Source of the DNA: Rhodothermales bacterium
GTDB taxonomy: Bacteria; Bacteroidota; Rhodothermia; Rhodothermales; VXPQ01
Length of the DNA: 64,000 nucleotides
Assembly: GCA_951812335.1 (NCBI GenBank)
Contig: OX638293.1
Span: 2,120,731-2,184,730 of the forward strand
Direction: 5' to 3'
The notes under the pieces were generated by a model that was not told where the DNA came from, did not search any database, and saw nothing but the letters and a program-made list of their open reading frames with translations. Position numbers and translations under genes: made by a program. Below, piece after piece: positions 6,858 through 56,535 of the stretch. The first letter of the stretch is position 1. Every line of letters begins with the position of its first letter.

Positions 6858-6869
6858 CCAAACAACCCC

Positions 6870-11878: not shown

Positions 11879-12748
11879 CTATCTGACAAGCGTCATGGTT
11901 TTTGTCAGTGCCTTGGCGCCGCGGCCGATCGTCAGGCGGTAGAGGTAGTTTCCGGTCGGCAATCCCCCGGCGTCGAACCTGGCCCTGTGCTCCCCTTGCG
12001 GCAGTACGGAATCCACGAGGATTGCGACAAGTCTGCCGGCCATATCGTACACTTCAAGGCGGACGGGACCGGACTCGTCCAGATAATAGACAATCTCCGT
12101 GGACGGATTGAACGGGTTCGGATAGTTCTGGGCCAGCGTAGAGGTTTCGGGAAGCTCGTCCGCACGATCGACGGACGTGCTTGCCCTAACGTTATCTACA
12201 CTTGGCGCCTTTGCGAAGATAATGGAAACCGTACCCTCATCCGGAGTTATTCGGTCAATTAACGGAGCAAAGGCGGCATATTTCGGCGGGAGCAGCGATA
12301 CAAGGGGCTTAATCGTGTCTATGAATGCATTTATCGCACCGATCTCCATCACAAGAGTCATATCGGCATCGCCATCGAATGTATAATGAGAACGTAATGG
12401 AGGAAGAGTCGCCAGAAGAGGTATTGTTAACGTAAGGGTATCTGCCGCCTCGTCTACCTCAAAGGCAATCAATCTCTGAATCGATATGTCGTCTGCCCAT
12501 ATATCGTGGGTCAGTGAAAGATACACGTCGAGCGAATCGCCGCCAGGATATTCCCGGAATGTGATGAAGCCCGTATTCAGGTATGCTTCTATATTCCCGG
12601 ATCTGTCCCCCGAATCGTCCCGTATCTCCGATAGTTCCCAGGTTCCCGCCAACCTTTCCTTATCGGACAGGGTCTGCGCAAAGGCGGACCATGATACCGA
12701 TAACATGACAGGCAGCGTTATCAAAAAAGCAAGCGATTTCCTGATCAT
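11879..12748 (-). CDS. secreted protein of unknown function with T9SS C-terminal sorting domain (paralog A)
   Basis: 289 aa with signal peptide (..WSAFAQ) and C-terminus NYPNPFNPSTEIVYYL..LEVYDMAGRLV..YLYRLTIG..KTMTLVR, a type-A T9SS CTD. The N-domain has a lipocalin-like GTWEL motif. Confidence 0.8.
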   Translation of the reverse strand: MIRKSLAFLITLPVMLSVSWSAFAQTLSDKERLAGTWELSEIRDDSGDRSGNIEAYLNTGFITFREYPGGDSLDVYLSLTHDIWADDISIQRLIAFEVDEAADTLTLTIPLLATLPPLRSHYTFDGDADMTLVMEIGAINAFIDTIKPLVSLLPPKYAAFAPLIDRITPDEGTVSIIFAKAPSVDNVRASTSVDRADELPETSTLAQNYPNPFNPSTEIVYYLDESGPVRLEVYDMAGRLVAILVDSVLPQGEHRARFDAGGLPTGNYLYRLTIGRGAKALTKTMTLVR

Positions 12749-12949
12749 GGCTTTCGGATCCTAATGTGTGATCGATCCAAACGGATGGGAATCCTTCGGC
12801 GTAACGCCCTGCCCGGACAAATGCCCAATGTTTTCCCCGCCCTGCATGGCAGTCCCTCAGGGAAAATACCACAGTGCAAGAAGGGTTGCAAAGCAAGTGC
12901 ACAACTTTTCACGCCGCTTTCCGGGCTTTAGTCGGACCGCACACCGTAT

Positions 12950-13127
12950 GGCAACGAACAAATATTCCCGATGTTCCGGAGTTGTTCGCGAAGGCTCTCA
13001 AGAATGCACGGCGCGATTCCGCCTCCCTTGCCGGCTTCGTCATTCCTTTCCGGCTCGACGGCAGCAGCCCCATTCCGGGATCGAACGTGCGACGCAAATC
13101 GTCTTCCCGGGAAGATATCCTGAATCG
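12950..13127 (-). pseudogene. dead duplicate of the purM 3' end (about 180 nt)
   Basis: DNA aligns with purM 14246-14425, for example gttgttcgcgaaggctctcaagaatgcacggcgcgattccgcctcccttgccggc versus gttgttcgcgaaggttctcaaggatgcgcacggcgcgatccgcctcgcttgccggc. There is a ~20-nt insertion and frameshifts. ORF 12909..13097 retains RRTFDPGMGLL versus purM RRTFNLGMGLL. Confidence 0.8.
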
Positions 13128-13171: not shown

Positions 13172-14011
13172 CTATCTGACAAGCGTCATGGTTTTTGTCA
13201 GTGTCCTGGCGCCGTTTCCGATGGTCAGACGGTATACGTAGGTTCCGGTCGGCAACCCCCTCGCGTCGAACAGGCCCCTGTGCTCCCCTGGCGGCAGTAC
13301 GGTATCCACAAGGGTTGCGATACGTTTGCCGGCCATATCGAACACTTCAAGGCGTACGGGACCGGACTCGTCCAGATAATAGATTATCTCCGTGGACGGA
13401 TTGAACGGGTTCGGGTAGTTCTGGGCCAGCGTCGAGGTTCCGGGAAGCTCGCCCGCACGATCGACGGACGTTACCCCCTTGCCTTCGACACGTGCGAAGG
13501 TAAAGGAAGCCGTACCGACATAGGGATCCAATTCGTCAAGTATCGGAACGAGGCCCGCCGCCCCAACCAATGATGCAAAAGGCTTAATCCCTTCTATAAA
13601 TCCATTTATAACAAGGCTGTCCATGACAAACGTCACCCGGATATCGCTGTCGAAGACATAATGAGAAGGTATATCGCCTGCCAATGTTACTGCTCTAAGG
13701 GTATCCACCGCCTCGTCTACCTCAAATGCAAGCAAACCCGTAACCGAGATGTCCTCTGTCGATATATCGTCCTTGGGCGAAAAAAACAAGTTGAGTGAAT
13801 CGCCTTGCGGCGTTTCAAGGAATGTCATAGTGCCCAGGTCCAGGTATTTGTCTATTTCGCCGGACCGGTCCCCCGAATCGTCCTGGATCGCCGATAATTG
13901 CCAGGTTCCCAGCAACATTTCTCTATCGGACAGGGTCTGCGCAAATGCGGACCAAGGCGATAGGAGCATAACGGATAGTGCGATCAAAAAAGCAAGCGAT
14001 CTGCTAGTCAT
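13172..14011 (-). CDS. secreted protein of unknown function with T9SS C-terminal sorting domain (paralog B)
   Basis: 279 aa with signal peptide, the same architecture and a near-identical CTD (NYPNPFNPSTEIIYYL..YVYRLTIG..KTMTLVR). It is a tandem paralog of 11879..12748. Confidence 0.8.
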   Translation of the reverse strand: MTSRSLAFLIALSVMLLSPWSAFAQTLSDREMLLGTWQLSAIQDDSGDRSGEIDKYLDLGTMTFLETPQGDSLNLFFSPKDDISTEDISVTGLLAFEVDEAVDTLRAVTLAGDIPSHYVFDSDIRVTFVMDSLVINGFIEGIKPFASLVGAAGLVPILDELDPYVGTASFTFARVEGKGVTSVDRAGELPGTSTLAQNYPNPFNPSTEIIYYLDESGPVRLEVFDMAGKRIATLVDTVLPPGEHRGLFDARGLPTGTYVYRLTIGNGARTLTKTMTLVR

Positions 14012-14200
14012 GGTTTTCCGTCTCGATGTGTTGCCAAACAGGGAAAACGCACGGAGCCCTGTGCCGCAACGCGCTTCTCCGGCAAGTGCTTGTCATTCAT
14101 TGTCATTGTCCATGGTTGGACTATTGCGCCAATATAGCGCATCGAAAGAGAATTGCAAAGGAGGGGCGCATACCGGGCAAGGAACAACGAGCGCCCCTTA

Positions 14201-14212
14201 ATCAGAGTATCC
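14201..14212 (-). repeat. solo copy of 12-nt motif GGATACTCTGAT (inverted)
   Basis: Exact reverse complement atcagagtatcc, 31 nt downstream of the purM stop. Confidence 0.7.
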
Positions 14213-14242: not shown

Positions 14243-15241
14243 TTACAGCGAACGAATTCTCCCGATCTTCCGGGGTTGTTCGCGAAGGTTCTCAAGGATG
14301 CGCACGGCGCGATCCGCCTCGCTTGCCGGCACGACGGCAAGCAGCCCCATCCCAAGATTGAACGTGCGGCGCAAATCGTCTTCCGGGACATCTCCGAGAT
14401 CCCGGATCAACTGGAAAAGAGGCGGGCGCTCCCAGGCATCGTAGTCGATGTCGAAGGTCAGGCCGTCCGGGATAATGCGCGGCGTATTGCCGGGAATGCC
14501 GCCTCCCGTAACGTGTACGAAACCCCGCCCCACCCCTTGTTCGAGCAGGGCGCGGATAGGCCTGAGGTAGGACCGGTGTACAGCGAGCAGCGCCTCGCCG
14601 ACACTCGCCCCGCCCAGTTCCTCCGGGCAATCCCCGGGATCGAAATGCGAAAACAACACGGTGCGGGCCAGCGAATAGCCGTTCGTATGCAGGCCGGTCG
14701 AGGGCAGGCCCAGCAGTACATCCCCCGCCTCGATGGCCGATCCGTCGACGATCTGCGCCTTTTCGACCACGCCCACGATAGCGCCGGCGAGATCGTACTC
14801 GCCCTTGCTGTAGAGACCCGGCATTTCCGCCGTCTCTCCTCCGATCAGCGCACACTCGTTCTCCTTGCATGCGATCGCCATGCCCCGAACCACCGATTCC
14901 GCCACATCCGGATCGAGCGTGCCCGTCGAGAAATAATCCAGAAAGAACAGCGGCCGGGCCCCGCACACGGCGATATCGTTTACGCAGTGGTTGACCAGGT
15001 CCTGGCCCACGGTGTCGTGGCGGCCCGTACGGAACGCCACCTTGAGTTTCGTGCCGACCCCATCCACCGAGGAGACGAGCAGCGGGCGATCGTACCCGTC
15101 GCCCAGTTCGAAAAATGCGCCGAATGCGCCGATATCCGCAGCTACACCCCTCGTGAAGGTCTCCCGCACGAGCGGTTTGATCCGGCGCAAGGTTTCTTTG
15201 CCTGCGTCGATGTCTACCCCGGCGTCGCGATACGTAGTCAT
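14243..15241 (-). CDS. purM: phosphoribosylformylglycinamidine cyclo-ligase (AIR synthetase)
   Basis: 332 aa with YRDAGVDIDAG and SSVDGVGTKLKVAF, typical PurM motifs. Confidence 0.9.
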   Translation of the reverse strand: MTTYRDAGVDIDAGKETLRRIKPLVRETFTRGVAADIGAFGAFFELGDGYDRPLLVSSVDGVGTKLKVAFRTGRHDTVGQDLVNHCVNDIAVCGARPLFFLDYFSTGTLDPDVAESVVRGMAIACKENECALIGGETAEMPGLYSKGEYDLAGAIVGVVEKAQIVDGSAIEAGDVLLGLPSTGLHTNGYSLARTVLFSHFDPGDCPEELGGASVGEALLAVHRSYLRPIRALLEQGVGRGFVHVTGGGIPGNTPRIIPDGLTFDIDYDAWERPPLFQLIRDLGDVPEDDLRRTFNLGMGLLAVVPASEADRAVRILENLREQPRKIGRIRSL

Positions 15242-15256: not shown

Positions 15257-16120
15257 TTATCCGCGTGAACGGAAGGTGGTGCGCCCGAACCTCGCCTGAA
15301 TACGGACCTGCATCCGGCTTCGGGTCGAAAGCGCAATCGGCCTGGCCCATACATCGTACTCACGCCGACGAATTTCGTGCAGAACTTCCAGCGCACCCAG
15401 CCACCACCGCTTGAACGCAGCGGCCTTGCGGCGCGGCAATTCGAGAGCAAGAGGCTCGGCCAATGCAAAAGCGTTCTTGGCCCGAATGGTTTGCTTCCAC
15501 AAAAGCCGTTTCATGGATTCGTCCACCCGCCCCTCGAGTAGTTGCTCGCGCGAAACGCCGTGCCGGACAAGATCGGTCTCGGGAATAAAACAACGTCCTT
15601 CGGCCACATCGCGTTTCAGAGCCATAAGACGACCCGTCCAGAAAAACCCGCGAGCCAATTCGTCAATGTAGTTGCGCTGCCACGATCCGAAGATGCCTGC
15701 AAGGTGGGCAAGCAGGCGGGCATGCGGAAAAATCCATTGAGCCATGAAATCGTTGACCGCGCGGTCGTCCGGAAAACGTGCAGGCCCCGCCCATACCCGG
15801 GCCGCCGATACCTGCTCGGCCAGCAAGGCGCGAGGCAATCCTTCCGCCTCGCAAGTGGCAAGCGCCTGGTTCGCCACAACCTCCGGGACGACACGGAGCG
15901 GCTTACCCACCATAATACGATCAGATTCCTCGTCGAAAAAGGCGTCGGCAGGAGACCCGGACGGCGAAGCGGACGGTAAGGCAAGCAACAAGGCGGGCCG
16001 GGCAAGCGCCTGGTGAAAATTCCATAGGGCCTGGGCATGGGGAAGTTGCTTCCGGTTCCAGCCATCGAGGTAGAATGGCATGGGCAGGGAATCCGGGATA
16101 TCGGGTGAAGAAACCGGCAA
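15257..16120 (-). CDS. squalene/phytoene synthase-like protein with degenerate second Asp-rich motif
   Basis: 287 aa. LMALKRDVAEGRCFIPETDLVRHGVSREQL aligns with the phytoene synthase region NIxRDVxEDxxxGRxYLPxExLxxxGV, but the DxxED motif reads DVAEG with a short deletion. Confidence 0.5.
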   Translation of the reverse strand: MPVSSPDIPDSLPMPFYLDGWNRKQLPHAQALWNFHQALARPALLLALPSASPSGSPADAFFDEESDRIMVGKPLRVVPEVVANQALATCEAEGLPRALLAEQVSAARVWAGPARFPDDRAVNDFMAQWIFPHARLLAHLAGIFGSWQRNYIDELARGFFWTGRLMALKRDVAEGRCFIPETDLVRHGVSREQLLEGRVDESMKRLLWKQTIRAKNAFALAEPLALELPRRKAAAFKRWWLGALEVLHEIRRREYDVWARPIALSTRSRMQVRIQARFGRTTFRSRG

Positions 16121-16165: not shown

Positions 16166-16207
16166 GGATACTCTGATTAAGTCCGCAAAGCTCAGAGGCT
16201 GAGAGGG
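16166..16207 (+). repeat. truncated copy (first 42 nt) of the 190-nt intergenic element
   Basis: ggatactctgattaagtccgcaaagctcagaggctgagaggg, 7 nt downstream of the thrC stop. Confidence 0.75.
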
Positions 16208-16213
16208 ATCGCA

Positions 16214-17524
16214 CTATGCCACAAGATACGGACGCAAGGCCTCAACAGAGGGTGCTATTTCCTCGAATGCCGTACCCTGCGCCCCGATCGCCGCCAGCCG
16301 GTCGGGCGCATCCGGTTCGAAACCGAGTGCAGCATGCACCGTCTCGGGAAACTTGGCCGGATGCGCCGTAGCAAGCACCACAACCGGCTCCTGCAGCGCA
16401 CCGAGTTCGCGCTGACGGCGTACCGCTTCGAGGCCCACCGCCGTATGCGGATCGGCCACATAACCGGTGGCCTCGTAGACCCGCCGCATGGATGCAACCG
16501 TATCTTCGTCGAGCACACGCTCCGCACGTATCAGCCGCTGCATAGTTGGACGATCCAGCAAGGCCTGGAGCCTTTCGAAATTGCTGGGCGCACCGACATC
16601 CATCGCATTGGAAAGGGTTCGAATCGTGGGTGCGAAACCGGCGTCTTTTCCGGATAGAAAGCGGGGGAAAAAGTCGTTGGCGTTGTGCGCCGCAAGAAAA
16701 CCCGCTACCGGCAACCCGGACAAGTGCGCAAGCACTCCCCCCGTCAGGTTGCCGAGGTTGCCGCTCGGCACGCAAAACCACGGTTTTTCTGCAGGGACCC
16801 GGCTCGCCGCGAGCACATAATACATCATCTGCGGCAGTAACCGGCCGACATTGATGGAATTGGCGGAAGAAAGGCCTGCCCCGGCGAACGCCGGATGCAC
16901 AAACGCTTCTTTCGCAATGCGCTGGCAGTCGTCGAAATCCCCGGCTACGCGCAGCGACTGTACGCCCGGCCTTGCTGCAATCAATTGCTGTTCTTGTACC
17001 CGGCTTACCTTGTCCTTCGAATAGAGCAGTACGACCCGGATCCGCTCCTGTCCGGCGAACCCGTCGGCCACGGCGCTGCCCGTATCGCCCGATGTGGCCA
17101 CAAGGATCGTCGCCCTTTCGCTCCGCTGCTCCAGAAAATAACCCATCCAGCGAGCCATGGTCCGCGCCCCGAAATCCTTGAAGGAGAGCGTAGGGCCATG
17201 AAACAGTTCCAGTACGAAGGTATCGCTCCACGGCCCACCCTCCGTTGGAGCAAGTGGCACGATAGGTACTGGAAAATCGAATGCATCCCGGACAATGCGT
17301 TCCTGATCGGGAGCGGGAATTTCCTCGCCGACCCAGCCTTCGAATACCTTGCAGGCCATGTTCGGGAGCGTATCTCCCTCGAATATGCGCGCAAAGGATA
17401 TGCGAGGTGGATTTTGGGGCACATACAAGCCCCCGTCGGGCGCCAGACCTCGCAAGAGCGCATCCCCAAACGATACGGTTTCCGTATCCGGCGTACTGCG
17501 CGTGCTGCGGTAAGGAGTCGGCAT
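16214..17524 (-). CDS. thrC: threonine synthase
   Basis: ORF 16214..17581. The likely start is MPTPYRSTRS at 17524 (436 aa), 7 nt after the thrB stop. The PLP site FHGPTLSFKDFGA is present. Confidence 0.9.
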   Translation of the reverse strand: MPTPYRSTRSTPDTETVSFGDALLRGLAPDGGLYVPQNPPRISFARIFEGDTLPNMACKVFEGWVGEEIPAPDQERIVRDAFDFPVPIVPLAPTEGGPWSDTFVLELFHGPTLSFKDFGARTMARWMGYFLEQRSERATILVATSGDTGSAVADGFAGQERIRVVLLYSKDKVSRVQEQQLIAARPGVQSLRVAGDFDDCQRIAKEAFVHPAFAGAGLSSANSINVGRLLPQMMYYVLAASRVPAEKPWFCVPSGNLGNLTGGVLAHLSGLPVAGFLAAHNANDFFPRFLSGKDAGFAPTIRTLSNAMDVGAPSNFERLQALLDRPTMQRLIRAERVLDEDTVASMRRVYEATGYVADPHTAVGLEAVRRQRELGALQEPVVVLATAHPAKFPETVHAALGFEPDAPDRLAAIGAQGTAFEEIAPSVEALRPYLVA

Positions 17525-17531
17525 GAACTCG

Positions 17532-18503
17532 CTACGCGGGCTGTTGCACGCGCACGTTGTGCTCCACCATATCGACGACACCCGTATCGTTCACTTCGGC
17601 TACCACGCCTTCGGCCTCGACCCGCTCGGATACGCTTGCCGCCAGCATGGCGTCCCGTATCGAAACGGCTTGTTCCGCGGAGGGCGCAAGGGCAAACATA
17701 GCCGGCCCCGAACCGGTCAGCGCACATCCGAACGCACCGGCTTCGAGGGCAGCGCTCCGTACGGCACGATAACAGGGCACCAGAGAAGCTCGCACCGGCT
17801 CCACCAGGCGATCCCGCATCATGCACTGCCCGACGGTTTCCCAATCGCCACACCGGTATGCATCCACCAGAAACGCCAATTCGGAAGCGTTGCCGGCAGC
17901 GTCCTTGAGCGGTACACGATCCGGCAACATCTCGCGGGCCTGCCTGGTGAACACCTGCACCGCAGGAAGAATAAGGGCAATATGAAGCGAACCGGGCAGT
18001 TCTATACGCCGGTAGCGAGAGGCATCGCTCGACGAAACCAGAATAAGCCCCCCCAGCAATGCGGGAAGCGCATTATCCCCATGCCGCCCGCCGGAAGCGA
18101 TATCTTCAGCCTCGAGTACAGCCTCGATAAGAGCTTCTTTTCCGAAAGGCCGCCCGAAAAGCATGTTCACGGCCCAGGCGCCGGCCACCGCGCTGGCTGC
18201 AGAGCCACCGATACCGGATCCGAGCGGAATCCCTTTCGTGAGCGTAAGCTCTACTCCTTCGTCCGTGCCGAGCAAATCCAACACCCCCTTTGCCGCAATG
18301 ACCGCGGTGTTCTTTGCGGAATCCTCGAGCACCTCCCAGGGCACGGCGCCCGGCTCATGCTTGAGCCGGATACCAGGGTATTCCGTACGGCGCGCCCGAA
18401 TCACATCGCCGATCCCGGAAATGCACAAACCAAGCGCATCGAACCCCGGTCCGAGATTGGACAAGGAAGCCGGGCCAAAAACATTTATATGACGAAATGG
18501 CAT
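17532..18503 (-). CDS. thrB: homoserine kinase
   Basis: 323 aa with GHMP kinase motif GIPLGSGIGGSAASAVA and N-terminus FGPASLSNLGPGFDALG. Confidence 0.9.
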   Translation of the reverse strand: MPFRHINVFGPASLSNLGPGFDALGLCISGIGDVIRARRTEYPGIRLKHEPGAVPWEVLEDSAKNTAVIAAKGVLDLLGTDEGVELTLTKGIPLGSGIGGSAASAVAGAWAVNMLFGRPFGKEALIEAVLEAEDIASGGRHGDNALPALLGGLILVSSSDASRYRRIELPGSLHIALILPAVQVFTRQAREMLPDRVPLKDAAGNASELAFLVDAYRCGDWETVGQCMMRDRLVEPVRASLVPCYRAVRSAALEAGAFGCALTGSGPAMFALAPSAEQAVSIRDAMLAASVSERVEAEGVVAEVNDTGVVDMVEHNVRVQQPA

Positions 18504-18566: not shown

Positions 18567-20036
18567 TCAGTGTATTCTCGGGAGATCGCCTTCACCTTTT
18601 GCGGGTAGCTCTGTCGCTTCCTCGCGCAGAAACACATCCACGCCGCGAGCCGCTTCCCGCCCTTCCGCGATGGCCCATACTACCAGCGACTGTCCCCTAC
18701 GCATATCTCCCGCCGCAAACACGCCGGGGCGCGACGACATGTAGTTTGCGTCCGTCCGGACATTGCCCCGTTCGTCCAACTCGATACCCAGTTGGGCAAT
18801 AACGCCATCCGGCTCCGGCCCTGCATAGCCAACCGCAAGAAGCACGAGATCGGCCGGCCACAGGTGCTCGGAATTCGGCTGCTCTACGAATCGCATGCGC
18901 CCGGAAGCGTCCTGTTTCGGTAACACGCTAACCGTACGCAGTTCCTGAACGAACCCGTCGTCGCCGCTGAATTCCTTTGTCAGTACACTCCAGTGACGAT
19001 CCACCCCCTCTTCGTGAGATGTACTCGTCTGGAAAACCATGGGCATGAAAGGCCAGGGTTGATGGGGCGGCCGATCCTCAGGCGGCGTCGGAAGCAATTC
19101 GAACTGTGTGACGGATTTTGCGCCCTGCCTGTTGGCGGTACCCACACAATCGCTTCCCGTATCGCCGCCGCCTATCACAATAATATCCTTGCCGGCAGCA
19201 GTGATCGGCTCAACATGATCCATGACGTCGCCCGCATTGATCTTGTTCTGCCTCCAAAGATAATCCCATGCGAAATGGATACCGGCCAACTCCCGGCCCG
19301 GAACCGGCATGTCGCGCGGCTTCGTAGCTCCTCCGGTAAGTACCACGGCGCAAAAGTCGTCGAGAGCCGTCACAGGGTAATTTTTGCCCACTTCGGCACT
19401 CGTCACGAACTCGACCCCTTCCTCGCACATCACATCGATCCGGCGATCCACAATCCATTTCTCAAGCTTGAAATCCGGGATACCGTAGCGAAGCAGCCCG
19501 CCGATGCGGTCATCCCTTTCAAATACGGTAACCGAATGACCCGCCTTGTTGAGCTGATCCGCGGCAGCAAGCCCGGCGGGACCCGATCCTACCACAGCCA
19601 CTTTCCTCCCCGTTCTTACTGCCGGTGGATGCGGCGCATACCAGTTCTCCTTCCAGGCCCTGTCGGAAATGCTTTTTTCAATCTGCTCGATCGTTACCGG
19701 CGGCTCGTTGATGCCGAGCACACAGGCCGATTCACACGGAGCGGGGCATATTCTTCCCGTAAACTCCGGGAAATTGTTCGTCGCGCGCAGCCTACCGAAC
19801 GCCGCTTCCCATTCGCCCTGGTACACCAGATCGTTCCAGTCCGGAATGATGTTGCCGAGCGGACACCCGGCCTGACAGAAAGGCACCCCGCAATCCATGC
19901 AACGCGCAGCCTGCCGCTTCACCTTCCGGACAGGAAGCTCCAGATACACATCGCGATAGTCGCGCTTGCGTTCCTCCACCGGGCGCCGGGGAGCCAGCTC
20001 CCGGGGATATTCCATAAATCCCGTTATTTTACCCAT
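18567..20036 (-). CDS. gltD: glutamate synthase (NADPH) small subunit
   Basis: ORF 18567..20177. The start at MGKITGFMEY (20036) gives 489 aa. It has the Fe-S cluster region CMDCGVPFCQ..GCPLGN and FAD/NAD fold VAVVGSGPAGLAAA. Confidence 0.9.
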   Translation of the reverse strand: MGKITGFMEYPRELAPRRPVEERKRDYRDVYLELPVRKVKRQAARCMDCGVPFCQAGCPLGNIIPDWNDLVYQGEWEAAFGRLRATNNFPEFTGRICPAPCESACVLGINEPPVTIEQIEKSISDRAWKENWYAPHPPAVRTGRKVAVVGSGPAGLAAADQLNKAGHSVTVFERDDRIGGLLRYGIPDFKLEKWIVDRRIDVMCEEGVEFVTSAEVGKNYPVTALDDFCAVVLTGGATKPRDMPVPGRELAGIHFAWDYLWRQNKINAGDVMDHVEPITAAGKDIIVIGGGDTGSDCVGTANRQGAKSVTQFELLPTPPEDRPPHQPWPFMPMVFQTSTSHEEGVDRHWSVLTKEFSGDDGFVQELRTVSVLPKQDASGRMRFVEQPNSEHLWPADLVLLAVGYAGPEPDGVIAQLGIELDERGNVRTDANYMSSRPGVFAAGDMRRGQSLVVWAIAEGREAARGVDVFLREEATELPAKGEGDLPRIH

Positions 20037-20291
20037 GGATGCTCTGATTAAATTCGCAAAGCTCAGAGGCTGAGAGAGGTGCGCTGGCAAGGAATGACGA
20101 AGCAATGTGGCAGGCCCCACATAATGAGGAATGACACGGCCAGCGTGCCCCTCTCTGCCTCCCGAAGGGCGCTTCACGTCCGCGACGCCCCGAATTCGCA
20201 GTGTTTCCCGCTGATTTCAACGATGGAATCATGATGTCCTGTACACGCGAAAGTGAAAGTGCTGAGCAAAGTGGTTTTGATCAGAGTATCC
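20037..20291 (+). mobile_element. MITE-like insertion: 190-nt conserved core (20037-20226, copy A) bounded by 12-nt inverted repeats
   Basis: The left end ggatgctctgat (20037-20048) matches the reverse complement of the right end atcagagtatcc (20280-20291) at 11 of 12 positions. The flanks are acccat (20031-20036) and acctat (20292-20297), a possible 6-bp target duplication. It occupies the whole gltB-gltD spacer and has no conserved ORF. Confidence 0.55.
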
Positions 20292-20323
20292 ACCTATACT
20301 TCCGATCCCTTGCAAACCCCCGT

Positions 20324-23300
20324 CTATACGACGGCATGTTCCGGCATAATCGCTTGCCCCGCTTCTTCCTCCAGCCTGAGGAGAGCATTCCGATATTCGA
20401 CCGGCATGATCTTGATGAATTCTTCCAGCGAGGCCTCCCAGTTTTCAAGAACCCATTCCGCCACGGAGCTGTCCGTAAAGCGATAGTGTTTTTCCACCAT
20501 CGCATGCAGTTCCTCCATGTCGGCAGGATCTTCCACCCTTTCGATATCCACCATTTTGCCGTTGCAACGCAACGTCCTGAACTCCAGGGTGCCGTCGAGC
20601 ACGTACGCCACGCCTCCGCTCATGCCCGCTGCAAAATTGCGCCCGGTGGGGCCAAGCACCACCATGCGACCGCCGGTCATATACTCGCATCCGTGATCGC
20701 CGAGGCCTTCGACTACGGCATGCACGCCGCTGTTGCGAACGCCGAAACGTTCGCCGGCCCGTCCGCGCACGAACACTTCCCCGCTCGTGGCGCCATACAG
20801 CGCCACATTGCCAATAATGATGTTGCTATGCGCATCGTACCCGGCATTTTCCGGCGGCTGGACGATCAGGCGAGAGCCGGAAAGCCCCTTGCCGAAATAA
20901 TCGTTCGCATCGCCCCTCAGGCGGACGGTAATGCCTGCGGCCCCAAAGGCGAAGAAGCTCTGCCCGCCGGAGCCGGTCATGTTGATACGGATCGTATCCT
21001 CAGGAAGTCGCCCGCCCGGATACCGCTTGCTCACCTCGGCGGAGAGCAACGTTCCGACCGTCCGGTTGACATTCCGAATAGCGATGTCGAATTCAACAGG
21101 GGTCTTCGTTTCGAGCGCCGGACGAGCCCTTTCGATCAGGCGATGATCCAGCGCCTTGTCGATGCCGTGATCCTGCTCCGTTGTACGGAATTTGCGCAGC
21201 GCTTCGGGAATCTCTGGCTTCACGAGAATCGGGGAAAGGTCCAGATACCTGGCCTTCCAATGATCGATACCGGGGCGAACTCTCAACCGCTGAACCTGTC
21301 CGGTCATTTCCTCCACCGTGCGGAATCCAAGACGGGCCATGATCTGGCGCAATTCTTCCGCGACAAAGTGGAAATAATTGATCACATCTTCCGGCTGCCC
21401 TTCGAATTTCTTCCGAAGCTCCGGATCCTGAGTGGCAATACCGACGGGACATGTGTTCAGGTGGCATTTACGCATCATGATGCAGCCTATCGCCACCAGC
21501 GGCGCCGTCGAGAAGCCGAATTCGTCCGCGCCCAGCAGACATGCGACCGCCACATCGAGCCCGGTCTTGAGTTGCCCGTCGCATTCCACTCGAATGCGGC
21601 TCCGGAGCCCATTCCGGACAAGCACCTGATGCGTTTCCGACAAGCCAAGCTCCCAAGGCAGCCCTGCGTGCATGATGGAGGTTTGCGGAGAAGCGCCGGT
21701 CCCTCCGTCGTGGCCCGAAATCAACACAAGGTCGGCCTTGCCTTTCGCCACACCGGCAGCGACCGTACCTACGCCCACCTCGGAGACAAGCTTGACCGTA
21801 ACCCGTGCATCCGGGTTCGAATTCTTGAGATCGTGGATCAACTGCGCCAGATCCTCGATCGAATAAATGTCGTGGTGCGGAGGCGGGGAAATGAGGCCTA
21901 CATACGGAGTCGAATGGCGCGTCTTCGCAATCCACGGGTATACCTTTTCTCCCGGCAATTGTCCGCCTTCCCCCGGCTTGGCCCCCTGGGCCATCTTGAT
22001 CTGAATCTCGTCGGCGCTCGTCAGGTAGTCGATGGTCACGCCAAAACGCCCCGACGCCACCTGCTTGATCGCACTCCGCTTTTCACTGCGGCGATCATAC
22101 CGCTCCGGGTCCTCGCCCCCTTCGCCCGTGTTGCTTTTGCCCCCGAGGCGATTCATGGCGATGGCGAGCGTCTCGTGGGTTTCCTTCGAAATGGACCCGT
22201 ACGACATGGCGCCCGTCTTGAACCGCTTGACGATCTCCGTCCACGGCTCCACCTCATCAAGCGGTACGGGTGTTGACCCCTCTTCGTCGAGCACGAGCAA
22301 ACCGCGCAAGGTGCCGAGCTGCCTGGTTTGATCGTTGATCTGCCGGGAATACTCCTCGTAGGTGGAAGCTTCTCCGGAACGCACTGCTTGCTGCAGGCGC
22401 GCGATCGTCATGGGGTTGAATAAATGGTGTTCCCCGTTGCGCCGCCAGAGATAACGCCCGCCCGGATCCAAGCCCTTAGAAAAAACAAGGTGGACATCCG
22501 GCCAGGCCTGACGATGACGCATCATCGTCTCCTCGGCAACCGTATCGAGGTCGATACCGCCTATTCGACTCGCCGTACCCGTGAAATACCGGTCGATGAG
22601 ATCCTGCGCCAGACCGACCGCCTCGAAAATTTGCGCGCCTCGGTAACTCTGCACCGTGGAAATGCCCATTTTCGACATCACCTTCAGAATCCCCTTCCCG
22701 ACCGACTCCATGTAGCCGACCCTTGCCTCGGTGTTGGAAATCTTTTCTCCTTCCAGCAAGCGTTCGATCACCTGCAAAGCCAGCCACGGATTTACGGCAT
22801 CGGCGCCGTATCCGATAAGTGTGCAGAAATGATGCACCTCCCGAGGTTCCCCGCTTTCAACCACGATGGAAGCGCGGGTGCGAAGACCCTTGCTAATCAG
22901 GCGATGATGTACAGCGCCCGTAGCAAGCAATGCCGGCATAGGCGCCAGGTCCGGGCCGGCCGCCCGATCCGACAATACCAGTACAGACCAACCTTCGCGC
23001 ACCAGTCGCTCCGCCTCTTTGCACAGATGGTCGAGCGCCTTGCGAAGCCCCTCTCCGCCGCTACCGGCATCGAATACAATGTCGATCTTCTTCGTCTTCA
23101 ATTCCTCGATTCCCGAATTCGGGAGACGCGCAAGGTCCCGATCCGACAAAATCGGCTGCTTCAGAATCAGTTTGCGGCAATGCTGCGGCGTCTCTTTGAA
23201 AAGATCGCGCTCGGACCCCAGTTGCGTGAACAGGGATGTCACCATCTCTTCGCGGATAGCGTCGAGCGGAGGATTCGTTACCTGGGCAAACAGCTGACGA

Positions 23301-24856
23301 AAATAGTCGTACAGGAGACGCGACTTATCCGACAGTACGGCGAGGGGCGTATCGTCTCCCATCGAACCGAGTGCCTCCTTGCCATGCAACCCCATGGGCC
23401 TCATGAGTAGACGCTCGTCTTCGAGCGTGTAGCCGAACATTTTCTCCCGGACATGGAGCTCTTCGGGAGAATACCGTGCCGGTCTCCCGTAATCCGGCAA
23501 ATCCTGGAGGCGTACGGCGTGATCCCGGAGCCACTCTATATAGGGGCGGCGGGTAGCCAGCGTTTGCTTGATTTCCTCGTCTTCAATGACCCGGTGCTCT
23601 TCCAGATCGACCAGAAACATCTTGCCGGGCTGCAATCGCCCCTTCGACACCACGTCGGCCGGATCCGTATCGAGAACCCCCGTCTCGGAGGCAAGAATGA
23701 CCAGGCCGTCTTTCGTGACCGTAAACCTGGAGGGGCGCAAACCGTTGCGATCGAGAATAGCGCCAATGTACCGACCGTCCGTAAAGGGCAACACGGCCGG
23801 GCCGTCCCACGGCTCTATCAAACAGGAATGGTACTCGTAAAAGGCGCGCTTGTCCTCGCTCATCTCCCGGGTATACTCCCAGGCTTCCGGCACCAGCATC
23901 ATCATGGCGTGCGGAAGCGAACGACCCGTGAAGTACAACAATTCGAGCGCATTATCGAGAATTGCCGAATCGCTGGCGCCCTCGGTCAGTATGGGCAAGA
24001 GCTTCTTCATGTCATCACCGAAGAGCTCCGACTCGAACAGCGACTGCCGGGCATTCATCCAGTTGAAATTGCCCCGGAGCGTGTTGATCTCGCCGTTGTG
24101 ACACAAAAAGCGGAAAGGCTGCGCCAGCGGCCATTTCGGGAGCGTATTCGTCGAAAATCGCGCATGCACCATCGCAAGCGCGCTCTTCATGCGAGGATCG
24201 ATCAGGTCGGTATAAAATCGGGGCAAGTCCTCGGACAACAACATCCCCTTATACACGATCGTGCGCGAGGATAGCGAGGGAATATAAAATTCGCTCGTCC
24301 GCGGTATATCCGCCCCTGCTACGGTATGTTCGACGACTTTGCGGATGACATACAGTTTGCGCTCGAACGCATCCTGATCCACTGTTTGCTTCCCACACCC
24401 TACAAGCACCTGCCAGAGTTCGGGCTGCATTTCTGCGGCGGCTTCCCCCACCGAATCCGGACAAATCGGTACGTGGCGCCATCCGAGAAATTCTTGCCCT
24501 TCCGCCCGAACGGTTTTCTCGACGATATTCCTGCAAAATGTCTGCGTACCGGCGTCCCGGGGTAAAAAAACCATGCCGGCCGCATACTTTCCCGGGGCAC
24601 GTACGCCGGCGCCGAGTTCTTTCAGCACGGGCGCTAAAAACTCGTGCGGCATCTGAAGAAGAATACCCGTTCCGTCGCTTGTCCGGTCATCGCATCCGCA
24701 TGCCCCGCGATGCACCAGATTGTTCAGCATTTCCAGCCCCTTCTGCACAATATCGTGGACGGGCTCGTTCTGCACATTGCAAACGAAACCGACGCCGCAT
24801 GCGTCGTGCTCGTAAAACGAATCGTAAAGGCCTTCGCGGATACGTGGTAACTGCAT
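20324..24856 (-). CDS. gltB: glutamate synthase large subunit
   Basis: 1510 aa with Ntn-amidotransferase start ..[14 protein letters not shown]/3Fe-4S central domains, and a C-terminal GXGXG beta-helix region. Confidence 0.95.
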
Positions 24857-24880: not shown

Positions 24881-26518
24881 TCAATCCTGCTGAACGAGGG
24901 CTTCCTTCATGGAGTGGATCGGCTTGGCGCCTTTTCGCATCAACGCATATCGGATGCCGTCTGCGATAGCCTGCCAACTTGCTTCCAGGATGTTGGTGGA
25001 AACGCCCACCGTATTCCATGTCTCGTTCCTGTTCTTATGCTCAACAAGCACGCGGACATACGCCGCCGTGCCGTCTTCGGGGCTCACCACGCGCACCTTG
25101 TAATCGGCGAGATGCATCTCTTCAAGACCCGGATAAAAGGCGATCAATACGCCGCGCAACGCGTTCGACAAGGCATCTACCGGGCCCACGCCTTCGGCCA
25201 CGAGCAATTCCCTTCGGCCATCGACGCGAAGCGCTACCGTCGCCTGGGTGGCATCCGCACCCGCATCGCTGAGCTCACTCTGAACCCGGAGTCGCTCCAG
25301 GGAAAAGAACTCTGCTTCCTCGCCTTGAATCTGCCGGAGCAGCAATTCGAACGAAGCTTCGGCGCCCTCGAATTCGTACCCGAGATGCTCAAGATCCTTG
25401 ATGCGCTTTACGGCGCGCGCCGCCTCGTCCGCTTCACCCAGATCAAGCCCCAACTCCTGTGCCTTGTAGCGAACGTTGCTGCGCCCGGATAAATCGGACA
25501 CGAGCACCCGACGCTTGTTGCCGACCTGTTCGGGCATGAGATGCTCGTACGCGGCCGGCTCCTTCATTACCGCCGACACATGGATGCCGCCTTTGTGGGC
25601 GAATGCACTCCGACCCACATACGCCGACCGCCCTACCGGATCGAGGTTCGCCACCTCGTATACGAAATGCGAGAGATCCGTGAGTTCACGCATTCTATCC
25701 GGTGCAACGCACGAGTATCCGAGTTTGAGCTGGAGTCCCGGGACAATCGCGGTCAGATCCGCGTTGCCACAGCGTTCTCCGATACCATTGATGGTCCCCT
25801 GCACATGCCGGGCGCCGGCCTGCACCGCCATGATCGAATTGGCCGCAGCACATCCGGAGTCATTGTGCGCATGAATGCCGAGCTTCGCTTCGAATCGGCC
25901 CGCTACATCCCCCACGATCCGGCCCAGCGTGCCTGGCAGCGTACCTCCGTTCGTATCGCACAGAACCAACGCGTCCGCACCCGCCGAAGCAGCGGCCTCC
26001 AGTGTTTCCAGCGCATAGACCCGGTCGTTCAGGTGCCCGTCGAAAAAATGCTCTGCATCGTATACCACATGCTTGCCGTGCTCCTTCAGGTACTCTACGG
26101 ACGAGCGGATCAGCTCAAGGTTTTCCTCCCCGGTTACACCCAGAGCCACTTCCACATGGAGCGTCCAGCTTTTGCCGAAGAGGGAAACCACCGGAGTATC
26201 CGCTGCCAGCATGGCCTGCAGGTTAGGATCGTCCTCCGGAGCATACTGTACGCGGCGCGTGGAGCCAAAAGCACAGATGCGCGCCTGCGCCCAATCCACA
26301 TCCCGCGCCAATTCAAAAAATTCCTGGTCTTTCGGATTTGAGCCGGGCCACCCCCCCTCGATAATACCAATGCCGAAACGGTCAAGACGTTTTGCGATCC
26401 GCAACTTGTCGCGGGCTGTCAGCGAAACGTGCTCGCCTTGCGTACCGTCGCGAAGCGTCGTGTCGAAGAGCTCCACAAGGACCGGTTCGTCGGCATGTTC
26501 TGACATGAAGGTATCCAT
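24881..26518 (-). CDS. cimA: (R)-citramalate synthase (LeuA-related, TIGR00977-type)
   Basis: ORF 24881..26635. The start must lie after the leuD stop (26592), so MDTFMSEH at 26518 is likely. LFDTTLRDGTQGEHVSL, GGWPGSNPKDQEFF, AFGSTRR and YDAEHFFDGH match Geobacter-type CimA as I recall it. Confidence 0.75.
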   Translation of the reverse strand: MDTFMSEHADEPVLVELFDTTLRDGTQGEHVSLTARDKLRIAKRLDRFGIGIIEGGWPGSNPKDQEFFELARDVDWAQARICAFGSTRRVQYAPEDDPNLQAMLAADTPVVSLFGKSWTLHVEVALGVTGEENLELIRSSVEYLKEHGKHVVYDAEHFFDGHLNDRVYALETLEAAASAGADALVLCDTNGGTLPGTLGRIVGDVAGRFEAKLGIHAHNDSGCAAANSIMAVQAGARHVQGTINGIGERCGNADLTAIVPGLQLKLGYSCVAPDRMRELTDLSHFVYEVANLDPVGRSAYVGRSAFAHKGGIHVSAVMKEPAAYEHLMPEQVGNKRRVLVSDLSGRSNVRYKAQELGLDLGEADEAARAVKRIKDLEHLGYEFEGAEASFELLLRQIQGEEAEFFSLERLRVQSELSDAGADATQATVALRVDGRRELLVAEGVGPVDALSNALRGVLIAFYPGLEEMHLADYKVRVVSPEDGTAAYVRVLVEHKNRNETWNTVGVSTNILEASWQAIADGIRYALMRKGAKPIHSMKEALVQQD

Positions 26519-26591
26519 TTTGACTGCTGATTGCCCGTTTCGGCATCGCTCGTAGCGACAGCTCATAGCGGGCCACACCCTGTTCGATGCG

Positions 26592-27155
26592 TCAGGTCGG
26601 CATAAATCCAGCTTGTCTTGCGAATTCGAAAACATTGCCCGCTTTCAGTATCTCGGCCACGTCCCCAAGGGGTTTGAGGAGAAATTCCTCTCCTGTCGTG
26701 CGGTTGGCGAGCTTGCCGAGCGTCGTGTCGATTTCGAGGAAATCGCCCGTACGCACACGTTCGACCAACCGCTCGATCGACTCGAATGGAACGATAAACC
26801 CTCCGTCCACCGCATTGCGATAAAAGATGCGGGCGTAACTCTCAGCCACAACGGCAGTGCATCCGGCTTCCTGCAACGCAAACGGAGCATGCTCCCGCGA
26901 AGACCCGCACCCGAAGTTCGAACCGCCCACCACGATCGCATAGGCGCTTCGAAATGTATCGTCCCTGGTAAAAGGCCGGGTCCCGTAAGGAAGTCCTTGC
27001 TGACCTTGCGGCACGCCACTGAGCGCATAGCGCCCGTAATACTTGCGCTCTTCCGGGTCGGACAGACTGTATACAAGGTGCTCCGCCGGGATGATTTGAT
27101 CCGTATCGATAGCGTCCCCTACTACGTAGGCCGCACCCCTGATCGTCTTGTTCAT
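26592..27155 (-). CDS. leuD: 3-isopropylmalate dehydratase small subunit (type 2)
   Basis: The internal start MNKTIRGAAYVVGDAIDTDQIIP at 27155 forms an ATGA overlap with the leuC stop. The motif GSNFGCGSSREHA is present. Confidence 0.85.
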   Translation of the reverse strand: MNKTIRGAAYVVGDAIDTDQIIPAEHLVYSLSDPEERKYYGRYALSGVPQGQQGLPYGTRPFTRDDTFRSAYAIVVGGSNFGCGSSREHAPFALQEAGCTAVVAESYARIFYRNAVDGGFIVPFESIERLVERVRTGDFLEIDTTLGKLANRTTGEEFLLKPLGDVAEILKAGNVFEFARQAGFMPT

Positions 27156-28444
27156 ACCAGCACCTCGCGAGGATCCGTAATGACTCCGGAAAGCGCCGAG
27201 GCCGCCACCGTGTAGGGAGACGCCAGATACACCGAAGCGTTCTTGCTGCCCATGCGCCCGGGAAAATTTCGGTTCGTGGTGGAGATTACGACTTCCGTGC
27301 CGTGTGTCCTCCCGAACGTGTCCGACGGTCCGCCAAGGCACGCTGCGCAGGAAGCCTGACCGAGTTTGCAACCGGATCGTTCGAATATCTCGTACAACGT
27401 GTCGCCTTCGACCCTCGTCGTGTGTAACTGCTTGCCGATCCAGGTCGTCGCCGGCACGATGTAGGTGTCGACGACCACCTCTTGCCCCCGAAGGATGCCC
27501 GCCGCCGCCACGAAATCCTCCAGCTTACCGCCGGTGCAACTACCGACGTACGCACGATCCAGGCGCGTCCCGGCAACTTCCGATACCGTCGCCCGGTTGT
27601 CCGGGCTGTGCGGCTTCGCCACAAGTGGTTCAATGTCCTCGACGCGGTAGGTCTTGAGCGTATGATACCGGGAATCCTGATCGCCGTAGACAGGCTCAAA
27701 CTCCCTATCGGTGCGCGCCCGTACATATTCGAAGGTTTTTTCGTCGGCAGGAATGATCCCGTTCTTCCCTCCCGCTTCGATCGCCATGTTCGTTAACGTC
27801 ATGCGCTCGTGGACCGGCAGGTCGTAGACGGCTTCTCCGTCGAATTCGAGCGCGCGGTATGTGCCCCCATCCGTTCCGATATCGCCGATGACCTGCAAGA
27901 TCAGATCCTTCGCCATCAGGTACGGCGGGAGAGACCCCTCGAACACGAATCGCATCGTTTCGGGAACCTTGAGCCAGAGCTTGCCGGTACCCATGATAAG
28001 CGCAGCGTCCGTGTTGCCCACCCCTGTCGAGAACATGCCGAATGCACCGGAAGTGCACGTGTGACTGTCCGTACCGATCAACAGAGAACCCGGCAGGTTG
28101 AATCCTTCCTCGGCCAACGCCATGTGGCACACGCCCTTGTAACTCGGCGTACCCGGATCATAGTAATACGGGAGATCGTGCTCGGCGACAAAGGCCCGAA
28201 GCAACTCCACATTGCGGTTTGCGTGGTGGTTCTTCGTAAAAATGTAGTGATCGGGAATGATCACCAGTTTCTCCTTGTCCCACGGCGCCGCATCGGCTCC
28301 GAATTCGCGGCGGAAGATATCGATGGTCGGGGGGCCGCACACATCGTGCGTCATGAGGATATCCACATCCACCCAGATGTTATCTCCGGGCGCCACCCGA
28401 TCCCGACCCGCGTGCCGCGCCAGTATTTTCTCCGTAATCGTCAT
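27152..28444 (-). CDS. leuC: 3-isopropylmalate dehydratase large subunit (type 2, aconitase family)
   Basis: 430 aa with MTITEKILARHAG, MTHDVCGP, GTDSHTCT and GSCTGG Fe-S ligand motifs. Confidence 0.9.
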   Translation of the reverse strand: MTITEKILARHAGRDRVAPGDNIWVDVDILMTHDVCGPPTIDIFRREFGADAAPWDKEKLVIIPDHYIFTKNHHANRNVELLRAFVAEHDLPYYYDPGTPSYKGVCHMALAEEGFNLPGSLLIGTDSHTCTSGAFGMFSTGVGNTDAALIMGTGKLWLKVPETMRFVFEGSLPPYLMAKDLILQVIGDIGTDGGTYRALEFDGEAVYDLPVHERMTLTNMAIEAGGKNGIIPADEKTFEYVRARTDREFEPVYGDQDSRYHTLKTYRVEDIEPLVAKPHSPDNRATVSEVAGTRLDRAYVGSCTGGKLEDFVAAAGILRGQEVVVDTYIVPATTWIGKQLHTTRVEGDTLYEIFERSGCKLGQASCAACLGGPSDTFGRTHGTEVVISTTNRNFPGRMGSKNASVYLASPYTVAASALSGVITDPREVLV

Positions 28445-30051
28445 GCTACGCCTCCCTCGAACGAACTCATGATGCCATTGCCGACAAAGGTCATGTTCTC
28501 CTCGTCGGATCGCCAGGTTTCCAGATTATTGAGCGCATCGATGTAGGCATCCGCAGATGCGCGAATCACATCCGTGTTTTGCGCCTGCCCTCTGAAAAAG
28601 GCCCCGCTTTCCCGTATGAGTACCGTCACTTCGCCAATGGCGCCAGTCCCCTCGGAAACGGATCGAATAGAGTAGCTTTCCAGTTTGCGCGAACTGCCGA
28701 GCGCATGATTAATGGCGCGATACACAGCATCTACAGGGCCATCGCCCGTCCCCTGCGCGGTCAACCGCTTCTCGGCAGCAACACTGAACACCTCCACCTC
28801 TGCCTTCGGCCGCTTGCCGGTGGCAACCGTAACGGACAGATTATCCAGCCGGTAATGCTGTAAAACCGCATGCTCCGCATTCCCCTGCACAAGGTGAATC
28901 AGATCCGCATCGTGAATTTCTTTCTTGCGATCCGCAAGGCGAACAAATAACTGGTAGAGCGTGTCCTTGCGGGAATCATCGACATGCAAACCCATCCGCT
29001 TCAGGCGACTGAAAAAGCCGTGGCGTCCGGAATGTCGCCCCAAGCGTATTTGTTCGCTCGTCTGGCCCACATCCTCCGCCTGCATGATTTCATAGGTATC
29101 CCGGCGCTTCAGTACGCCATGCTGGTGAATGCCTGCTTCGTGGCTAAAGGCGTTGCGCCCCACAATAGCCTTGTTCGGCGGCACCGGAAATCCCGTCGCC
29201 ACCGACACCATGCGGCTCGTTTCCGCAAGATGCGTAGCCTCGATATCTGTGTCGACGCCGAATTGCTCGTGCCGGACCCGCAGCGCCATCACTACTTCCT
29301 CAAGCGCGGCATTACCGGCCCGCTCGCCAATGCCGTTGATCGTACACTCGATCTGCCGTGCGCCCGCGCGCACGGCAGCGATGGAATTGGCCACGGCAAA
29401 GCCAAGATCGTCGTGACAGTGCGTCGAGAGCACCACATTCTTCGTCGAGCGTACACCCTTGCGAACAGCCTCGAACATGCGTGCATATTCGGTGGGCGTA
29501 CAATAGCCGGTCGTATCCGGAATGTTGATGGTGGTGGCGCCCTCCTCGATCGCTGCAGCAATCACCTCGCACAAAAAACCGTGGTCCGTGCGTCCCGCAT
29601 CCTCCGTGCTGAATTCTATATCGTCGGTATACGTCCGCGCGAGTTGTACGGCTTCGCGAGCCATCCGCACGACGTTCCGGCGTTTCTCCGGGAGCGTTTT
29701 GCCGTACCTGTCGCTGCCGAACTTGGCATCTATGTGAATGTCGCTGGTGGCGATAAACGTATGAATCCTTGTCCGTTCACCCCCGGACAGTGACTTGCCG
29801 GCGGCATGCACATCGTTTTCAAGTGCACGGGCAAGCGCACAGATCACAGGACCTTGTACATCGCGCACGATACTGGCCACAGCCTCGAACTGGGCCGGAG
29901 ACGAGATCGGGAAGCCGGCTTCGATCACGCCTGCATTCAGTTTTACAAGTTGCCGGGCGATGCGGACCTTCTCATGAATCGTCATGGATGCGCCCGGCGC
30001 CTGCTCGCCGTCGCGCAACGTCGTATCGAATATGGTTACTTTGTCTTTCAT
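28441..30051 (-). CDS. leuA: 2-isopropylmalate synthase
   Basis: 536 aa with IFDTTLRDGEQAPGASM, HCHDDLGFAVANS and a C-terminal LeuA dimer/regulatory domain. Confidence 0.85.
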   Translation of the reverse strand: MKDKVTIFDTTLRDGEQAPGASMTIHEKVRIARQLVKLNAGVIEAGFPISSPAQFEAVASIVRDVQGPVICALARALENDVHAAGKSLSGGERTRIHTFIATSDIHIDAKFGSDRYGKTLPEKRRNVVRMAREAVQLARTYTDDIEFSTEDAGRTDHGFLCEVIAAAIEEGATTINIPDTTGYCTPTEYARMFEAVRKGVRSTKNVVLSTHCHDDLGFAVANSIAAVRAGARQIECTINGIGERAGNAALEEVVMALRVRHEQFGVDTDIEATHLAETSRMVSVATGFPVPPNKAIVGRNAFSHEAGIHQHGVLKRRDTYEIMQAEDVGQTSEQIRLGRHSGRHGFFSRLKRMGLHVDDSRKDTLYQLFVRLADRKKEIHDADLIHLVQGNAEHAVLQHYRLDNLSVTVATGKRPKAEVEVFSVAAEKRLTAQGTGDGPVDAVYRAINHALGSSRKLESYSIRSVSEGTGAIGEVTVLIRESGAFFRGQAQNTDVIRASADAYIDALNNLETWRSDEENMTFVGNGIMSSFEGGVA

Positions 30052-30207
30052 TGGAGGAATTCCTCGACGGTTCCTTTTACAAGTAGTGCGTAGGGGCTAT
30101 TGCACGCGCCCGATGCGTCGACGACAGGAAGTCGTCCCGCCCATGCTGCGTCGGGCGCCTTGTAAGTCGAAGAAAATCAACATGGCCAATCTGTACAATA
30201 TGGCGTG

Positions 30208-56520: not shown

Positions 56521-56535
56521 GGCGAAAAAGGCATA

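Follow-up and report, generated by a model that had tools for sequence, protein, structure and literature searches.

A non-coding interspersed repeat of about 255 nt with a constrained single-stranded fold in sponge-associated Rhodothermales

Bacterial MITEs such as Correia/NEMIS in Neisseria, ERIC/IRU in enterobacteria, and RUP and BOX in Streptococcus pneumoniae measure about 100-300 nt and occur as tens to hundreds of intergenic copies, full-length as well as internally deleted, at A/T-rich sites near genes. Their features, together with those of REP/BIME, PATEs and the RNAs of HEARO/IscB, TnpB and IS110 elements, serve here as general background. The family described in this work resembles Correia, ERIC, RUP and BOX in being small and non-coding, in having terminal inverted repeats (TIRs), and in being able to fold end to end as a single strand. 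It was encountered in the window, by which we mean the whole stretch of 64,000 nt of Rhodothermales DNA that was analysed (58.7% G+C), where a first-pass annotation had pointed to an intergenic sequence of 190 nt present twice. These two sequences, named copies A and B, are a complete and a 3'-truncated (decayed) copy of a non-coding interspersed repeat of about 255 nt from sponge-associated Rhodothermales. The finding is real and beyond chance, and it represents not a lone new sRNA but a new repeat family of uncultured sponge symbionts.

The repeat unit and its distribution

The 190-nt pair, at 20037-20226 and 63096-63285, both on the + strand, aligns without a gap and with 27 differences, 23 of which are transitions (85.8% identity), just as first described, and a blastn self-comparison of the window places it far above chance (E = 4e-61). 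The 5' limit originally given for copy A stands, but the 3' limit does not, as the copy runs on to 20291. The similarity between the two copies stops near 20228 because copy B is truncated. An inverted copy of the first 16 nt of the element is found at 20276-20291, and therefore copy A is an element of 255 nt, at 20037-20291 (+), which covers nhmmer profile positions 3-259 and has 16-nt inverted boxes as termini, GGATACTCTGATYAAR ... YTTRATCAGAGTATCC. The box scan places the left terminal inverted repeat, GGATGCTCTGATTAAA, at 20037-20052 (+); the right one, at 20276-20291 (-), has the - strand sequence GGATACTCTGATCAAA and is the partner of the 5' box in helix P1 (see below). Copy A fills the gltB-gltD spacer, with its 5' end abutting the ATG of gltD (20034-20036, -) and its 3' end 32 nt from the gltB stop codon. 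The gene context had been read correctly, since Pfam gives glutamate synthase large subunit for 20324-24856 (-) and small subunit for 18567-20036 (-), and the gene ending at 63070, which copy B follows, has an HHH_3 domain.

Copy B (63096-63288, +; nhmmer E = 4e-60, profile positions 4-199) sits between the convergent genes 61130-63070 (+) and 63342-63893 (-). It is shortened by the last ~60 nt, retaining the 5' arm of P1, P2, and the 5' strand of P3, and lacking the 3' strand of P3 and the 3' box; no inverted box is present downstream of it.

The 16-nt sequence at the start of the element, GGATRCTCYGATYAAR, occurs eight times in the window with at most two mismatches, against 0.04 expected, and all eight occurrences are intergenic. 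Two of the further sites are 46-nt 5' stubs consisting of the box and the 5' module only, both detected by blastn, box scan, and the nhmmer profile. One, at 1019-1061 (+), lies 17 nt upstream of the start of gene 532-1002 (-); the other, at 16166-16209 (+), lies between thrC (16214-17581, -) and gene 15257-16120 (-) and has an orthologous stub in locus L018. The box scan also gives solitary boxes, at 6846-6861 (+, one mismatch) and 14197-14212 (-, no mismatch), both intergenic, and at 56532-56547 (-, one mismatch), where two - strand genes are 31 nt apart and the box accounts for most of that spacer. The perfect, inverted box at 14197-14212 and a degenerate one at 13973-13988 form the ends of a 240-nt spacer (13973-14212) whose interior does not match the family profile; the spacer is 87% conserved in L018 and may represent another type of element, or a pair of solo ends. 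Elsewhere in the window, an Rfam tRNA match (56.5 bits) at 58999-59082 (+) has a long variable arm and a T-run after the gene, and its anticodon loop, read by eye as UUUAGGA, suggests a tRNA-Leu(UAG). Clustering of the predicted proteins by blastp also gives two paralogous gene pairs, 24881-26635 / 28441-30051 and 11879-12748 / 13172-14011.

In a genome collection, a 27-nt pattern of the 5' module was found at 51 loci, in six Rhodothermales MAGs and in one contig of a Pseudomonadales bin. About 20 matches are spread round the chromosome OX638295.1 (2.8 Mb), and 12 are dispersed over OZ220746.1. The contig from the Pseudomonadales bin (L028, JANQSV010000048.1) and a contig from a Rhodothermales bin (L031) both carry the element, and their right flanks match at 100% identity over 250 nt, so that L028 was probably misbinned. 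In metagenomes, the box pattern occurs at no fewer than 120 loci, and nearly all of the matches listed come from sponges, in the WGS sets LXNI and LXNJ, which are the microbial metagenomes of Sarcotragus foetidus and Petrosia ficiformis (PMC5099237). The further copies that the first-pass annotation had suggested collecting thus exist by the dozen in Rhodothermales genomes and at these metagenome loci, and at least 58 of full length (26 from genomes, 32 from metagenomes) were assembled for analysis. A search for plasmid-borne relatives of the element found none, a look-up of records of the exact gltD or of the 183-aa neighbour protein returned none, and in the literature we found neither the box sequence in a relevant context nor MITEs in Rhodothermales.

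With these copies at hand, the view of a discrete 190-nt RNA gene in two copies has to be given up. What had been seen is the first three quarters of a dispersed, TIR-bounded repeat of ~255 nt, as indicated by the dozens of copies per genome, the truncated and deleted derivatives, and the sites that are occupied in one genome and empty in another. The indels among the copies are not multiples of three, so that there is no coding potential and no shared reading frame, as originally stated. The absence of a known RNA family was also borne out by an Rfam/Infernal-type check, in which the whole library gave no match to the element at the gathering score or at E <= 0.1 in the window and four metagenome loci; nor did these whole-library scans return any transposon-associated RNA family.

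Fold, covariation and strand polarity

The RNAalifold structure of the 26 full genome copies comprises three helices, whose positions are given here for the + strand of copy A. P1 brings the two ends of the element together: its 5' arm, at 20035-20064, combines two nucleotides of flank with the box and the 5' module TTCGCAAAGCTC, and pairs with 20264-20293, which includes the 3' module, the 3' box, and again two flanking nucleotides. It is 96-98% paired, and compensatory changes occur at box positions and in the flanking dinucleotide; inside the terminal boxes, the compensatory variants are GGACAC/GTGTCC, GAATAC/GTATTC, and GGAGAC/GTCTCC. P2 is a long hairpin (20066-20161) made up of the long helix noticed in the first pass and an apical hairpin (20105-20108/20119-20122), with pairs 42/131, 46/127, 47/126, 74/99, and 77/96 among those that covary. 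P3 is formed by GGCGCTTCAC (20168-20177) and GTGAAAGTGCT (20253-20263), with the consensus GGGCGCKTCAC paired with GTGAMGYGCT, and closes a variable 3' domain of ~75 nt; at its pair 150/237, 15 copies have UA and 9 have GC, and at its pair 153/233, 21 have AU and 3 have GC.

Two GGAATGAC boxes, at 20091-20098 and 20128-20135 (+), face each other across P2 and are nearly invariant in the 26 copies. In antiparallel arrangement they would give the series G-C, G.A, A.G, A-U, U-A, G.A, A.G, C-G. The loops and the GGAATGAC boxes are conserved to the same degree as the stems. A hammerhead-like CUGAUNA motif and a K-turn were considered for the boxes and rejected, as key positions misfit (by eye) and Rfam was negative.

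Pairs were counted on a 66-pair version of this structure. In the genome set (26 copies), 96.4% of the cells are paired and double changes are seen at 12 pairs (57 cells), with none of 500 shuffles reaching as high and slid controls at 32-46%. In the sponge-metagenome set (32 copies), which was gathered with a covariance model built from the genome set and whose structure-fitted alignment biases the counts towards that structure, the values are 93.9% paired and 20 pairs with double changes (73 cells), which again none of 500 shuffles equalled, with slid controls at 35-45%. A constrained single-strand structure, which had been suspected from two copies, is thus supported by covariation in both collections, the second alignment being structure-fitted. 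The apical hairpin (20105-20110/20117-20122), the GGAATGAC boxes, and the long helix with two adjacent G-U pairs are found where the first-pass annotation had placed them, and the long helix and the apical hairpin, both within P2, covary. Two other helices drawn there fared less well: the small hairpin CTCAG-AGG-CTGAG (20062-20074) and the 3' helix GGGCG/CGCCC are each ~90% paired, are without compensatory change, and do not outperform shuffles. The bases of these two local hairpins belong instead to the long-range covarying helices P1, P2, and P3.

The proposed preference for the + strand is also supported, as wobble counts, the tandem G.A loops, minimum free energy (MFE), z-score, and consensus fold all favour this strand. 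The helix cells hold 165 G-U against 22 A-C, and wobble is the majority state at seven sites, A-C at none. Polymorphic pairs move between GC, GU, and AU with A-C almost absent, as in pair 81/98 (AU 12, GC 10, GU 10, other 0) and pair 148/239 (GU 13, GC 11, AU 2). Of the 26 copies, 20 have the lower MFE on the + strand (mean -120.1 kcal/mol, against -112.5 kcal/mol on the - strand), and the fold of copy A has a z-score of -6.32 (+) against -3.57 (-). The RNAalifold consensus of the + strand has 59 pairs and an energy of -66.8 kcal/mol; that of the - strand has 47 pairs, lacks P3, and reaches -54.9 kcal/mol. All of these strand measures share the ancestry of the copies and are not independent trials. 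The minor, mostly copy-specific stem variants have no clear bias (by hand tally, ~21 sites gain G-U and ~15 gain A-C), which suggests that the polarity was fixed in the propagating lineage and not at each site.

A counter-example is given by the copies of L022 and L044, which lie at corresponding sites in two species and are six double compensatory pairs apart. This difference could reflect selection in place on a functional structure, and it could also have come about by gene conversion or independent insertion. The strand that folds could be RNA or single-stranded DNA, since the same signal would come from either.

Insertion junctions, decay and gene context

The gltD-proximal insertion is shared by the window, L018, and L047, with the identical flank tattttacccat. 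The flanks are ~92-93% identical, and copy A is therefore older than the divergence of at least three species. Immediately beyond the 3' box, the orthologous copies of the window (20292-20301) and of L047 (2046-2055) have 8-10 nt that are mutually reverse-complementary, ACCTATAC against ATATAGGTAC, which would be a small inversion or the remnant of an abutting box.

Other insertions are polymorphic, with four occupied/empty pairs between related genomes: L010 5792-6045 and L010 1098-1178 are absent from L002, L002 4914-5108 is absent from L010, and L005 5370-5632 is absent at window ~30178-30208. Two junctions are clean. In the first (L010 against L002), the empty site CTC-AA-CTTTG becomes CTC-AA-[core]-TT-AA-ATTTG when occupied; in the second (L002 against L010), TTG-TA-GCCGG becomes TTG-TA-[core]-TA-TA-GCCGG. 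In both, the occupied allele equals the core plus 4 nt in the arrangement X'-XY-core-rc(XY)-XY-Y'. Across the family, the nucleotides just outside the two ends are complementary in 40 of 46 elements (mean 24 and maximum 33 in 2000 shuffles) and the next ones out in 37 of 46 (mean 19, maximum 29, again 2000 shuffles). A repeat of the 5' dinucleotide at the 3' side, at an offset of 2, occurs in 17 of the 46 elements, where 8.8 would be expected. A simple TA duplication or a direct target duplication of 3-4 bp was also considered, and it does not fit the empty-site junctions, with their core plus 4 nt and complementary dinucleotide. We infer that insertion may involve a 2-bp duplication and a 2-nt addition templated by hairpin fold-back. 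To our knowledge, such hairpin-templated (fold-back fill-in) insertion has not been described for bacterial MITEs.

The 49 box pairs fall into length clusters of 244-257 nt (canonical), ~183-190 nt, and exactly 63 nt. The ~183-190-nt class is without profile positions 149-212 and the 63-nt class is reduced to the ends; each length class is found at several unrelated sites and in more than one genome. In truncated copies at many loci, including the two 5' stubs of the window, and in the 63-nt minis, the break nearly always falls at profile positions ~47-56, where the G+C-rich P2 stem has its foot, which suggests that these deletions may have been provoked by the hairpin. In L030 35-288, L023 3037-3124, and L016 6885-6938, the P2 hairpin is inverted as a whole relative to the rest, so that the GGAATGAC boxes read GTCATTCC; such flipped copies are rare (2-3 of ~60). 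Some other copies are nested or back to back. These truncations at the foot of P2, the inversions of P2, and the nested and back-to-back copies are DNA-level behaviour typical of palindromic repeats. In L090, two full copies in inverted orientation (12825-13078 and 14528-14781) flank ruvB (367 aa), in a composite-like arrangement without transposase.

All copies are intergenic, often with a start codon at a distance of 0-6 nt or a stop codon at 3-30 nt. In 28 of 40 cases the gene beside the 5' end points away from the element, and for ~11 of these 28 no more than 4 nt separate its start codon from the box. Element orientation does not track neighbouring transcription: among copies between tandem genes, 12 are antisense and 6 sense, and copy A is antisense to gltBD. 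In the window (20034-20052) and at ~10 other loci (e.g. L008, L022, L031, L044, and L047), the 5' box is 0-6 nt from the ATG of a gene that points away from the element, so that what stands immediately upstream of these genes is always ...TTAATCAGAGTATCC; nothing resembling a Shine-Dalgarno sequence precedes those ATGs. A consensus scan predicted neither a sigma-70-like promoter nor an intrinsic terminator in or beside copy A, nor an outward sigma-70-like site at the element ends, and the Bacteroidetes-type motif TTG-N19-TAnnTTTG is not enriched in the window. In a sponge metagenome (L143), a full + copy (4840-5093) is followed 6 nt on by a co-oriented RNase P class A RNA (5100-5514, 243 bits), which places the rnpB promoter inside or beyond the element.

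Readings of the family and comparison with known systems

We consider it probable that this family is a previously undescribed MITE-like (foldback-type) non-autonomous mobile element with a constrained single-stranded fold. The canonical copies are 244-257 nt long and non-coding, 49 elements have the 16-nt inverted boxes, and the copies are dispersed and show insertion polymorphism. The element would be moved in trans by an enzyme recognising the terminal boxes and would insert at A/T-rich dinucleotides within narrow intergenic spacers; the + strand fold might be needed for propagation, as a single-stranded intermediate, or for tolerance or usefulness after insertion. A cognate autonomous IS with matching terminal repeats was not found in 171 loci plus the window (~1.3 Mb), nor was a transposase between boxes or adjoining 5' stubs; this is weak evidence against a parent IS, as the scanned DNA consists of the surroundings of known copies only. 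More specifically, the ORFs between distant inverted boxes (L016, L024, L001, L042, L026, L046, L007, and L090) and those adjoining 5' stubs (L035, L043, and L004) include no transposase, and an all-against-all comparison of 349 flanking proteins gave no multi-copy transposase, the genes met in these checks being housekeeping genes only. Further observations speak against the MITE-like reading. The junctions are unusual and are not a simple direct target-site duplication. Compensatory changes inside terminal repeats are unexpected if a transposase reads each double-stranded end separately. The six double compensations between L022 and L044 could point to selection in place. Finally, conserved loops and GGAATGAC boxes are typical of functional RNA, which counts against a plain MITE.

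On a rival reading, the family would be a true multi-copy structured ncRNA, transcribed from the + strand; its three-way junction and purine-rich internal loops (tandem G.A, AAA/GAA) would serve for protein binding or have a function in cis, with dispersal as a secondary feature. Covariation in two separately collected copy sets, GC/GU/AU states with almost no A-C intermediates, nearly invariant unpaired boxes, the better fold of the + strand, the rarity of flipped P2 variants, and the six double compensations between L022 and L044 are all consistent with such an RNA. Nevertheless, the orientation of the copies ignores flanking transcription, with twice as many antisense as sense and copy A opposed to gltBD, and neither promoter nor terminator is predicted in or beside copy A. 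A promoter would have to sit in unrelated flanking DNA at every site, because P1 needs both termini. The many truncated and deleted copies, down to the 63-nt forms with ends only, and the unbiased minor stem variants (~21 G-U, ~15 A-C), which look like near-neutral decay in place, also argue against it. We therefore regard a structured ncRNA family as possible but rather unlikely.

The unexplained junction rule and the covariation within the terminal repeats may leave room for a more novel reading, to which we give little credence. The + strand three-way junction, with tandem G.A loops formed by the facing GGAATGAC boxes, would here be the functional unit of a mobile structured nucleic acid, either a protein-binding or catalytic RNA riding on a transposon or the single-stranded DNA substrate of an undescribed recombinase, and the flanking complementary dinucleotides would record insertion by hairpin-templated fold-back fill-in.

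A related proposal, that a palindromic element is moved as one specific DNA strand, as in IS200/IS605-derived PATEs, REP/RAYT, and integron attC, with the + hairpin as substrate, seems to us quite unlikely. Strand-specific tolerance of G-T and tandem G.A pairs as stable in DNA as in RNA would suit it, as would compensation that reaches the terminal repeats and the flanking dinucleotide, which fits recognition of a folded end-to-end stem, and junctions without a classical direct duplication. Against this, IS200/IS605-type elements show a replication-orientation bias, whereas in two complete chromosomes we observe no orientation bias of the copies relative to GC skew or replichore, orientations being mixed in both GC-skew domains. 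No HUH/Y1 (RAYT/TnpA) gene was seen in the fetched loci, and PATEs and REPs are not known to have 16-nt TIRs that pair end to end.

Very improbable is a host-domesticated intergenic module, like REP/BIME or ERIC, acting on the mRNA that contains it through processing, stability, or stop-start codon juxtaposition, for even if copies fill whole spacers of tightly packed genes with ~11 of 28 5' ends within 4 nt of a start and many 3' ends 3-30 nt from a stop, if the gltB-gltD insertion is kept in three species, and if P1 draws two flanks together, most operon mRNAs carry the worse-folding - strand, and eight + strand wobbles of copy A become A-C mismatches in the gltBD mRNA.

A MITE-like element thus remains our preferred reading, and it has practical consequences. 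A defined high-copy repeat family is now available for uncultured sponge-symbiont Rhodothermales, with relevance for annotation, assembly breaks, strain typing, and misbinned contigs, and the case illustrates how a mobile repeat can give rise to what looks, within one window, like a "novel structured RNA". The at least 58 full-length copies form a natural set of covarying stems, conserved loops, strand-specific wobbles, and unusual junctions, and the family makes it testable whether the structure of a bacterial MITE is selected for mobility, operon tolerance, or RNA function.

Compared with the known systems, the Rhodothermales element differs from Correia, ERIC, RUP, and BOX in having no sequence similarity to them, and it has no Rfam or literature match. 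Like HEARO/IscB omega-RNA, TnpB reRNA, and IS110 bridge RNA, it is multi-copy, structured, non-coding, 150-300 nt in length, and covarying, and travels with mobile DNA, but those RNAs adjoin the gene of a protein that belongs to the same element and makes use of them, whereas no ORF is associated with this one. It shares with REP/BIME-RAYT and the IS200/IS605-derived PATEs the palindromic, strand-specific nature of intergenic repeats in which the folded single strand matters and not the duplex; REPs, however, are units of 20-40 nt without long TIRs, and the Rhodothermales element has no RAYT/TnpA nearby and no replication-orientation bias. In Correia elements a fixed TA is duplicated, whereas here the flanking dinucleotide is variable and its complement is mirrored at the other end. 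It also differs from these hairpin MITEs in forming not a simple hairpin but a three-helix junction with conserved purine-rich loops, with compensatory changes and a + strand wobble bias over 58 copies.
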